This document shows positions 2,622-4,159 of a DNA stretch of 4,159 nt, in pieces. The first letter of the stretch is position 1, and every line of letters starts with the position of its first letter. The notes under the pieces were generated by a model. That model had not been told where the DNA came from and searched no databases. It saw nothing but the letters and a program-made list of their open reading frames with translations. Source of the stretch: a virus (Duplodnaviria; Heunggongvirae; Uroviricota; Caudoviricetes); the IMG/VR virus record IMGVR_UViG_2534681835_000023, positions 1 to 4,159 of that record, one strand, 5' to 3'. The translations under genes and the position numbers were made by a program.

Positions 2622-3890
2622 ATGGCAGTAAAGATTTCAGGTGTACTGAAAGACGGCACAGGAAAACCGGTACAGAACTGCACAATCCAGCTGAAAGCAA
2701 AACGTAACAGCACCACGGTGGTGGTGAACACGCTGGCCTCAGAAAATCCGGATGAAGCCGGGCGTTACAGCATGGACGTTGAGTACGGTCAGTACAGCGT
2801 TATTCTGTTGGTGGAGGGATTCCCGCCGTCACATGCCGGGACCATCACCGTGTATGAAGATTCTCAACCCGGTACGCTGAATGATTTTCTCGGTGCCATG
2901 ACGGAGGATGATGCCCGTCCGGAGGCATTGCGACGTTTTGAACTGATGGTGGAAGAGGTGGCGCGTCACGCTGAGGAGGCGAAGAAGAATGCCGGAGAGG
3001 CGGAGACGTCAGCGAGGAATGCCGGCATATCAGCCAGTCAGGCAGAAGAGAGCGCTGCAAATGCTGACACTTCAGCAGGGGAGGCATCGGAGTCAGCCCG
3101 GCAGGCGGCAGAAAGTGCAGCCTCAGCAAAGCAGTCAGAGGATGCGTCCTCGTCCTCGGCTTCTGCGGCCGCTCAAAAAGCCAGTGAGTCATCACAAAGT
3201 GCAGCAGAAGCTGAATTGTCAAGAAAGACGGCAGAAAGTGCAGCCGGTAATGCAGCCAGGGATGCAACGACCGCAACAGAAAAAGCCCGGGAGTCAGCAG
3301 AAAGCGCACAGTCAGCGGAACAAAGCAGGATAGCGGCGGAAGAGGCCGTAAACCGAATCCCCACCGTGGTGGGACCACCCGGACCAAAGGGAGAACAGGG
3401 GCCCGCGGGTCCTCAGGGGCCGAAGGGTGATAAGGGAGAGCGTGGTGACACCGGCCCTGTCGGGGCAACCGGCGAACGGGGACCGGGAGGAGATACAGGT
3501 CCGGCAGGTCCGCAGGGGCCGAAAGGCGACAGGGGAGAGCGGGGAGAGACCGGGCTGACAGGAAGTACAGGTCCACAGGGACCGAAAGGAGAAACAGGTG
3601 CGGCTGGCCCGGTGGGGGCAACCGGACCTCAGGGACCGAAGGGCGACCCGGGGGAGACACAAATCCGTTTTCGTCTGGGGCCGGCGAGCATTATTGAGAC
3701 AAACAGCAATGGCTGGTTCCCGGGTACAGATGGCGCACTCATCACCGGACTGACCTTTCTTGACCCCAAAGATGCCACACGGGTTCAGGGTTTTTTTCAG
3801 CATTTGCAGGTCAGGTTTGGTGACGGGCCGTGGCAGGATGTCAAGGGGCTGGATGAAGTGGGCAGTGATACAGGCAGAACAGGAGAATGA
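2622..3890 (+). CDS. stf: Side tail fibre protein (lambda Stf-like N-terminus) with Ala/Ser/Glu-rich linker, collagen-like Gly-X-Y domain and small C-terminal globular domain
   Basis: ATG at 2622 preceded by GGGG(TG). The N-terminus [26 protein letters not shown]...[14 protein letters not shown]...[20 protein letters not shown] matches the conserved lambda Stf N-terminal domain as recalled. This is followed by a low-complexity A/S/E-rich segment, 32 uninterrupted Gly-X-Y triplets and a ~77-aa C-terminal domain. Stop TGA at 3888-3890. The ORF-track start at 2616 (GTG) is probably 2 codons too long. Confidence 0.88.
2960..3350 (+). repeat. Low-complexity Ala/Ser/Glu-rich coding region inside stf
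   Basis: Translation [82 protein letters not shown]... It contains a 17-nt direct repeat, cggcagaaagtgcagcc, at 3106-3122 and 3229-3245. Confidence 0.7.
3372..3659 (+). repeat. Collagen-like triple-helix repeat region (32 consecutive Gly-X-Y) inside stf
   Basis: Translation [96 protein letters not shown] with no break in the Gly-X-Y register. The DNA is GC-rich and internally repetitive (recurring cagggRccgaaRgg units). Confidence 0.9.
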
Positions 3891-3910
3891 CATGAACGTC
3901 TAAAAAACTT

Positions 3911-4159
3911 ATGCAGCGTCTGTGCGGGTACGGAAAGCATGATGACCGTGAACACGGGGAGTTACTTACAGCACAACTGCGTCTGGGGCCGGCAGACATC
4001 CTGGAGTCAGATGAGAATGGCATTATCCCGGAGCAGGACAGGGTAATCACGCAGGTGGTGATACTGGATGCGGATAAAAAGCAGATACAGTGCGTGGTAA
4101 GACCGCTGCAAATCCTGCGTGCTGACGGGACGTGGGAAAATGTTGGCGGGATGAAATAG
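3911..4159 (+). CDS. Hypothetical protein; diverged paralogue of the Stf-like C-terminal domain (possible alternative or remnant fibre-tip cassette)
   Basis: 82-aa ORF, ATG 3911 to TAG 4157-4159, with no clear Shine-Dalgarno sequence upstream. Residues ~20-75 (AQLRLGPADILESDENGIIPEQDRVITQVVILDADKKQIQCVVRPLQILRADGTWENV) align with the Stf C-terminus ([61 protein letters not shown]). A 14-nt identical core, cgtctggggccggc, sits at 3672-3685 and 3980-3993. Confidence 0.5.
   Translation: MQRLCGYGKHDDREHGELLTAQLRLGPADILESDENGIIPEQDRVITQVVILDADKKQIQCVVRPLQILRADGTWENVGGMK

Follow-up and report, generated by a model that had tools for sequence, protein, structure and literature searches.

In several phages a tail fibre gene is followed directly by a small gene that shares its strand and transcription unit: this is the arrangement of lambda tfa, of the assembly protein genes of Mu and P2 (PF02413) and of the gp38 genes of T4 and T2. 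In such systems the tip and its assembly factor form a module, and the factor travels with the tip. Here we describe a gene in this position whose product goes back to an ancient duplication of the tip domain of the fibre. It lies at the end of a 4,159-nucleotide (nt) stretch of phage DNA (positions 1 to 4,159 of IMG/VR record IMGVR_UViG_2534681835_000023; the whole stretch is called the window below), which is the distal tail region of a lambdoid prophage of the enterohaemorrhagic Escherichia coli (EHEC) type. The gene follows a side tail fibre gene of the EPclA type and, like the end of that gene, encodes a PfC domain (PF06820). Its family is PHROG 576, and its counterpart in phage phi24B is known as 'gp59'. 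The common form of the protein has 89 amino acids (aa); the open reading frame (ORF) of the window is a damaged allele. The features on which the argument rests are:

2622..3890, plus strand: EPclA-type side tail fibre gene, 422 aa from the ATG at 2622
3663..3854, plus strand: PfC domain (PF06820) of the fibre, residues 348-411
3672..3685, plus strand: 14-nt core, copy 1, encoding R-L-G-P-A
3791..3797, plus strand: T7 run in the PfC coding region of the fibre, a candidate slip site for the +1 frameshift proposed in GenBank record KU977420, unsupported when tested
3911..4159, plus strand: ATG-initiated ORF of 82 aa, corresponding to residues 8-89 of the canonical small PfC protein
3971..4156, plus strand: PfC domain (PF06820) of the small ORF, residues 21-82
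3980..3993, plus strand: 14-nt core, copy 2, in the small ORF

Comparison with described tail fibre systems

Directly downstream of the fibre gene and sharing its transcription unit, the small gene sits in the position of a tfa gene, and it also resembles tfa in travelling with the distal module of the fibre across different fibre scaffolds. A sequence-only reading of this DNA, made before any database search, had seen no lambda-type tfa; none is present in the window (Pfam search) or downstream of the small gene in the near-identical complete genome L001. Unlike Tfa, the small protein does not belong to PF02413 (Caudo_TAP): its only Pfam hit with an E value up to 0.1 is PF06820, and a search of NCBIfam gave no match. 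It differs from the Tfa and gp38 systems in being paralogous to the fibre tip, and we know of no Tfa or gp38 that is a paralogue of the tip. A further difference from Tfa is that the recombinant fibre trimerises without the small protein (PMC3368898).

The pair also recalls the G segment of Mu and the C segment of P1, where a second version of the distal part of the fibre is kept next to the fibre gene. In contrast to these cassettes, the locus lacks both an invertase and inverted crossover sites, and the small gene is on the same strand as the fibre gene, with start signals of its own. In 2600-4159 a single inverted repeat was found, a 13-nt pair (3055/3797) whose arms do not bracket the small ORF. 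Another parallel can be drawn with the C-terminal intramolecular chaperone domains of the K1F endosialidase and of T5 pb1. They trimerise and, working in cis, nucleate the folding of a shaft that is itself trimeric, and they are removed by cleavage. PfC is like these chaperone domains in that it trimerises and nucleates the folding of the collagen helix, and unlike them in that it stays on the fibre (PMC3368898); moreover, the extra PfC copy is a separate gene.

The fibre itself is of a described kind, since it has the architecture and PfC tip of the EPclA/EPclB proteins (Ghosh et al. 2012, PMC3368898). Its Pfam domains are PF08400 (residues 1-133), Collagen (PF01391, 287-345) and PF06820 (348-411), and in the translation an Ala/Glu/Ser-rich stretch lies between PF08400 and the collagen. 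This agrees with the EPclA order of PfN, coiled-coil region, one collagen domain and PfC, the coil being putative. With 422 aa the fibre differs in length from the copies studied in that paper (437 or 407 aa; EDL933, Sakai). Residues 1-94 match the Stf chain 9e7m of Ur-lambda (E 9e-53), where the corresponding N-terminal part forms a collar by which the fibre is attached to the tail (PMC12617516). Size-exclusion chromatography with multi-angle laser light scattering, together with electron microscopy, identified the C-terminal PfC of EPclA as a trimerisation module and as the distal knob (PMC3368898); the paper makes no mention of a downstream gene consisting of PfC only. A similar pair exists in phi24B, where gp61, an EPclB-type fibre with a matching tip, adjoins the 'gp59' ORF. 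Unlike the prophage of the window, phi24B is short-tailed and its pair is embedded among structural genes.

The sequence-only reading had not recognised the arrangement as a described system. As far as papers are concerned this holds: our literature searches found no publication describing the small ORF and no experiment on its function. The databases, on the other hand, do name it. Gene and domain are known to Pfam, PHROGs and PGAP (which calls the ORF 'phage tail fiber C-terminal domain-containing protein'), and GenBank records carry conflicting function labels. The curated record OM418627 has a marked ribosome-binding site (RBS) and gives the product as 'tail fiber assembly chaperone', while KU977420 (phage AU6Stx1) names it 'atfT, alternate tail fiber tip'. 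From these conflicting labels and an otherwise vague annotation, the present analysis derives a short list of alternatives that can be tested. The arrangement is best regarded as a variation on the known pattern of a fibre gene with an accessory gene downstream, the accessory protein here being paralogous to the tip.

Paralogy of the small protein and the fibre tip

The sequence-only reading had aligned the ORF with the last ~60 residues of the fibre, had found identity at the DNA level in a 14-nt core alone, and had taken the duplication to be old rather than recent. Protein and hidden Markov model searches bear this out. BLASTP against the 424-aa fibre (the mechanically called ORF, starting at GTG 2616) paired ORF residues 22-81 with fibre residues 351-412, with 24/62 identities (39%), 60% positives, 2 gaps and an E value of 4e-11. 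Both segments cover all 64 model positions of PF06820 (Phage_fiber_C; gathering cut-off 25 bits), the ORF with 123.5 bits (E 4e-36) and the fibre with 125.4 bits (E 1e-36), and the ORF matched no unrelated family. A sequence search of the PDB found no relative of PfC and matched only the N-terminus of the fibre (9e7m) and collagens.

The longest exact DNA word common to both genes is the 14-mer CGTCTGGGGCCGGC. Over the aligned codons DNA identity is 54%, and at third positions it is 47%; synonymous sites are saturated and the copy is therefore old. What did not hold is the suggestion that the N-terminus of the ORF is a decayed form of the collagen-to-tip junction. Compared with the whole pre-tip fibre, the N-terminal tail was equalled in score by 40% of 2000 shuffles, and compared with the last 40 pre-tip residues by 92% of 2000 shuffles, which scored equally well or better; the resemblance is no better than chance.

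An ancient pair in Salmonella

A profile search of 1.84 billion representative proteins gave 92 hits, mostly E. coli fragments. Among them was P0131, a 79-aa protein of Salmonella enterica (subsp. salamae and others). In its locus (L082) the small ORF follows the gene of a 212-aa, fibre-like protein without collagen, whose C-terminus matches PF06820 with 59.5 bits and whose N-terminal 120-150 residues resemble putative tail fibre and carbohydrate-binding (CBM5/12) proteins of Yersinia and Vibrio phages. The two genes overlap by 14 nt, an AGGAGG precedes the small ORF, and its stop is followed by a terminator-like hairpin and T-run, as read from the sequence. The Salmonella ORF retains CTGGGGCCGGC at the 14-nt core.

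The two small proteins are 49% identical (77 bits) and the E. coli and Salmonella tips are 40% identical (55 bits), while all comparisons of a small protein with a tip gave 29-39% (42-45 bits). Pairs of the same type are thus closer than cross pairs, and the duplication therefore predates the split of the E. coli and Salmonella modules. Judging from these sequences, both copies have been retained since then. The E. coli and Salmonella small ORFs also have in common the N-terminal motif M-x-I-[LF]-K-K...C-L-x-G-C-x-K.

Translation start and operon structure

The start of the small gene can be read from a comparison of 82 copies (the window, L001 and 80 IMG/VR loci). The sites concerned are:

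2584..2611, plus strand: terminator-like hairpin and T-run 3' of lom, with an 8-bp stem containing 7 GC pairs
3881..3885, plus strand: Shine-Dalgarno sequence AGGAG, 6 nt before ATG 3892 and inside the last codons of the fibre gene
3892..3903, plus strand: canonical start in the window allele, ATG AAC GTC TAA

The common form of the protein has 89 aa and begins MN(I/V)LKKLMQRLCG(C/Y)GKHDDREHGELLTAQLRLGPADILESDENG...; it is represented by several protein clusters with hundreds to more than 1000 member sequences each. In the 82 copies the junction reads AGGAGAATGAC-ATG-AAC-(A/G)TA-CTA-AAA-AAA-CTT-ATG, so that an RBS in the last codons of the fibre gene is followed by the fibre TGA, one base and the canonical ATG. 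The AGGAG is kept in nearly all copies (one has a 1-nt deletion in it), and the AGGAGG of the Salmonella pair is at the equivalent position.

The small gene is co-transcribed and translationally coupled with the fibre gene. Only a single base separates the fibre stop from the canonical ATG, there is no terminator between the two genes, and no sigma-70-like site was found upstream of the pair on its strand. Terminator-like hairpins are located 3' of J and of lom, and that at 2584..2611, which is also present in L001, marks the upstream edge of the unit formed by the fibre gene and the small ORF. The downstream edge is visible in L001, where a hairpin with a 12-bp stem and a T-run lies 15 nt past the stop of the small ORF; it is not seen in the window because the window ends at this stop.

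The window itself has lost this native start. A TAA (3901-3903) is brought into frame by two 1-nt deletions, one turning GTA into GT at about 3899 and the other shortening A7 to A6 at 3902-3907, and only the ORF from the internal Met8 (3911) survives, with no Shine-Dalgarno sequence before its ATG. The window copy can at best yield an 82-aa product from Met8. As it stands it lacks residues 1-7 of PHROG 576, while restoring the canonical sequence of the window allele gives a match to all 89 positions (1-89; E 2e-59). The deletion at about 3899 is missing from the best complete-genome matches (99.8% identical).

The A7 run, which encodes Lys-Lys at codons 5-6, is an A6 in 5/82 copies (the window, L001 at 8304-8309, L037, L076 and L078), and the A6 form frameshifts the native start. 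The exact 82-aa sequence occurs on no fewer than 992 public contigs, which makes this homopolymer a break point that either recurs or is widely inherited.

Selection on the small gene

The intact 89-aa protein is encoded by 76 of the 82 copies. In the PfC part of 53 distinct alleles the ratio of non-synonymous to synonymous differences per site (pN/pS, pooled Nei-Gojobori counts) was 0.040 with a pS of 0.13, while the 28-residue N-terminal tail gave 0.30 and the whole small ORF 0.10. Read in the other two frames, the DNA of the PfC part gave 6.2 and 2.3. Segregating changes in this part comprised 18 synonymous (43 sites) and 9 non-synonymous ones (140 sites; binomial p = 2.6e-6); because the counts are pooled and pairwise, from related sequences, the p-value is indicative only, whereas the contrast between frames stands. 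At the level of the family the small ORF is a working gene under strong purifying selection. It is more conserved than the fibre tip that it adjoins, as the C-terminal 77 codons of the fibre had a pN/pS of 0.22 (75 copies). Its near-invariance relative to the fibre's own tip argues that it is not the variable, host-range-determining element.

Peptides of the small protein in phi24B

Evidence for translation comes from phi24B. A preprint on the cryo-electron microscopy structure and proteome of this phage describes gp61 as the lateral fibre, with a collagen-like shaft and a small C-terminal globular domain (bioRxiv 10.64898/2026.04.10.717836). In its virion proteome supplement, the peptides ADGTWENIGGMK and VITQVVILDADKK are mapped to 'gp59_start', an ORF at 39891-40295. 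Both peptides are unique to the small ORF and match the canonical 89-aa protein exactly; one of them also matches the ORF of the window exactly, and the other differs from it at one residue (I/V). The small ORF is therefore translated and present at a low level in purified phi24B virion preparations. In our reading of the supplementary spreadsheet, each peptide is represented by 3 spectra, compared with 38 and 47 for the C-terminal peptides of gp61. An earlier proteome study of a phi24B lysogen (PMC3342100) was uninformative on the small ORF.

Distribution and linkage to PfC-tipped fibres

Among 5426 complete E. coli genomes, 698 contain window positions 3600-4159, and the median number of copies in these is 11. 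Searches of 50,697 phage records gave 296 with the fibre tip and 296 with the small ORF, and the organism breakdown was the same for both; these records are Stx1 and Stx2 (Shiga toxin) converting phages and other Escherichia phages. The pair is carried both by long-tailed lambdoid phages (EPclA) and by short-tailed Sepvirinae (EPclB; TL-2011c), and in the short-tailed Stx phage TL-2011c it lies amid structural genes and not at a cargo boundary. The small ORF is strictly linked to PfC-tipped fibres of three different builds. PfC-tipped collagen fibres are carried by Stx1 and Stx2 converting phages and by lambdoid prophages of EHEC that bear effector genes.

When one genome of each species was scanned, the only finds were in E. 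albertii and in a contig of 725 bp labelled Xanthomonas pisi. The latter (L084, NZ_JPLE01000138.1, from X. pisi DSM 18956) bears a small ORF of the E. coli type with 92% identity and is most likely assembly contamination.

Role of the small protein

On balance we lean, if only slightly, towards the view that the small gene provides a separately translated accessory protein of PfC-tipped fibres, descended from an ancient copy of the tip. The 89-aa protein is made from its own AGGAG and ATG on a transcript shared with the fibre gene. It would form oligomers of the PfC type and act together with the fibre tip, either improving or controlling tip assembly or forming a minor distal component of the fibre, and it occupies the genomic slot of lambda tfa while being unrelated to Tfa. 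Of the explanations offered by the sequence-only reading, a separately expressed protein standing in for tfa is the best supported one, given the operon, the linkage to the tip and the lack of tfa; its role as an obligatory chaperone is doubtful. More tentatively, the small PfC protein could be a new fibre accessory factor, unrelated to Tfa and gp38, that mimics a tip subunit and would pair with the PfC of the fibre transiently or as a distal cap. We regard this as possible though rather doubtful; if true, a tip mimic would control the assembly or the receptor-facing end of the collagen-shafted fibres of Stx-converting and related phages.

Several observations weigh against an accessory function of this kind. 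Recombinant EPclA and a PfC-thioredoxin fusion trimerise in E. coli without the small protein (PMC3368898), and an obligatory folding-chaperone role is doubtful for this reason; the low number of small-ORF peptides in virions points the same way. In virions the small protein is no more than a minor component, and carry-over could account for its presence; the main text of the phi24B preprint does not discuss gp59 (bioRxiv 10.64898/2026.04.10.717836). The N-terminal tail is weakly constrained, and the prophage of the window has lost the native start. Oligomerisation and contact with the fibre are putative, and in AlphaFold2 monomer models of the 89-aa protein the predicted local distance difference test (pLDDT) score was 54.6 for the sequence alone and 54.0 with a 15-row alignment; the short N-terminal tail is helical in these low-confidence models.

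The annotation of KU977420 implies something different, namely that a minority of fibre chains acquire an alternate tip ending in the second PfC through a programmed +1 frameshift ('slippery sequence and pseudoknot predicted ... +1 frameshift'). The small ORF is indeed in the +1 frame in Salmonella too, and this frame runs without a stop over the 46 codons ahead of the ATG in 77/85 copies, an open run that by our arithmetic is expected by chance in about 11% of cases. The authors of the phi24B study included the entries 'Fusion_6159_FS1/FS2', with the comment 'Spike or just gp59?', in their search database (bioRxiv 10.64898/2026.04.10.717836), and in the supplement of that study spectra of the small ORF and of the fibre C-terminus stand at roughly 1:13. 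No peptide of the +1 linker, however, is among the rows listed in the part of the supplement that was accessible. The candidate T7 run is present in only 43/85 copies, others reading GGGGCTGTTTCAG and similar, and a slip there would cut the fibre's own PfC domain in half. The RNA from 3786-3915 folds no better than shuffled sequences (z = +1.03), and upstream of the ATG the +1 frame has a pN/pS of 1.59, as opposed to 0.24 for the fibre frame, and contains a stop in one allele. In Salmonella a TAA interrupts it two codons before the ATG, and it is at the ATG, with an RBS of its own in each case, that residue conservation between E. coli and Salmonella begins (M-x-I-[LF]-K-K). We therefore consider a frameshifted tip to be quite unlikely. 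It is also conceivable that the product acts free of the virion, as a soluble or lysogen-expressed receptor decoy or superinfection exclusion factor, for example a trimeric knob that sits on the receptor of the fibre, or that the gene belongs to the cargo of the effector locus. In long-tailed prophages the exchangeable effectors begin right after it, and NleG cassettes carry pieces of it along; it is scarce in virions, and in our per-band reading of the phi24B data a gel band of low molecular weight hints at spectra specific to the small ORF. Against this, no sigma-70-like promoter lies upstream on its strand and the RBS is inside the fibre gene, so that expression follows the late operon; in short-tailed Stx phages the gene is in the middle of the structural genes, and inspection of the sequence revealed neither a signal peptide nor a lipobox. 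A function of this sort is unlikely.

The remaining alternatives treat the ORF as a displaced tip, which either persists as a relic through linkage or serves as a donor for tip replacement; the sequence-only reading had suggested both a tip left behind and a spare cassette. The identical 14-nt core sits at the junction, the small ORF of the window is damaged at its 5' end, and truncated copies are scattered in effector islands. Two public proteins are chimeras: in P0058 the collagen shaft (…GERGP) is joined directly to the PfC of the small ORF (ADILESD…), and P0135 combines the first 40 residues of the small ORF with the back half of the fibre PfC. Recombination between the copies therefore occurs, though rarely, and in P0058 a collagen region fused to the ORF-type domain, which the sequence-only reading had proposed to look for in related prophages, does exist. 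Among the 82 loci, by contrast, not one fibre carries a tip of the small-ORF type, there is no invertase, inverted repeats flanking the ORF are lacking, and a third-position identity of 47% offers too little homology for frequent exchange, which leaves the spare cassette a weak proposal. As for a decaying tip, that proposal must be rejected: purifying selection is strong, and in the correct frame only (pN/pS 0.04), 76/82 copies are intact, RBS, ATG and N-terminal motif are kept between E. coli and Salmonella, where the pair persists, and purified phi24B virions contain small-ORF peptides. Taken together, a relic or cassette is very unlikely.

If the small protein does shape the assembly or the distal end of the fibre as an accessory factor, it bears on how these phages find their hosts and hence on the spread of toxin and effector genes. 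It would also offer a second, separately expressed PfC module for work on collagen trimerisation tags.

One further candidate was rejected on inspection of the sequence. An exported receptor blocker, such as the Llp/Cor lipoproteins, does not fit the N-terminal segment MNILKKLMQRLCGCGKHDD, which has no hydrophobic core and in which position 14 varies between C, Y, H and R.

Neighbouring genes and mosaic structure of the window

The part of the window upstream of the fibre unit contains the following features:

window start to 1890: the 3' two thirds of J, with Ig_GpJ_C at its end
between J and lom: terminator
1957-2556: lom (PF06316)

No Rfam family matched within the window. In L001 the same genes are followed by an EspF-repeat gene and tccP2 and espV pseudogenes, all on the opposite strand, beyond which comes the tyrosine integrase of the next prophage. 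The sequence-only reading had proposed looking past 4159 for tfa, an invertase or effector cargo; of these, effector genes are present in L001, while tfa and an invertase are not.

Two single-base indels in homopolymers, at 664 (A5 to A6) and at 1351 (AA to A), break J into three ORFs (4-747, 611-1357 and 1483-1890). The nearest J allele, L090, has neither of them; it is annotated as intact, with an identity of 99.6%. The indels in J and in the small ORF of the window reflect either prophage decay or sequencing error. The window is also a mosaic. Its J part is 99-100% identical to L090 (strain E2863), to which the part with the fibre gene and small ORF is only ~93% identical. Window positions 3600-4159 are instead 99.8% identical to L001, whose J is much more diverged; over the whole window the identity to L001 is 92.6%. 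The join lies around the boundary of J and lom (1-1960 versus 2470-4159).

Partial copies and related domains

Partial copies of the 3' end of the small ORF are found again 0.8-4 kb past the intact gene; they are 80-90% identical to window stretches that begin at 4019-4088 and end at 4157-4159. They were located at 6021-6127 in L014, at 5954-6090 and 8212-8282 in L075 and at 9250-9320 in L044, and are also present in L012, L033, L043, L046, L047, L055, L058, L062, L064, L065 and L081. In the two loci inspected, L014 and L075, they lie behind cargo genes; the order in L014, confirmed by Pfam, is small ORF, NleG, partial copy, NleB and NleC-type protease. The end of the small ORF seems to mark, and to travel with, exchangeable effector cassettes.

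Pieces of this kind occur outside E. coli. In Citrobacter rodentium (L086, 4337-5183) an open PfC fragment of 60 aa is found 80 nt past NleG and before an NleC-type protease, in the same order and with the same spacing as in L014, and no fibre gene is near. In E. albertii (L089, 5001-5225) a 74-aa fragment adjoins an insertion sequence element. Both are fragments of effector islands and not partners of a fibre. A module with cargo resembling effectors of the type III secretion system exists in a classical lambdoid laboratory phage as well: the hybrid lambda h434 imm21 (L092, OM418627.1, 1421-5216), whose name indicates the host range of phage 434, carries an EPclA-type fibre gene and the small ORF, followed by NleB-like and NleC-like genes.

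Finally, the public protein P0149 (565 aa; PF06820, 57.6 bits), a distant relative, contains four tandem PfC-like repeats followed by a collagen region, the repeat reading …VVVLDADxxTATGQMGILxVRxADGTWxEIPAxKG. The PfC fold can therefore evidently sit in line within a fibre.

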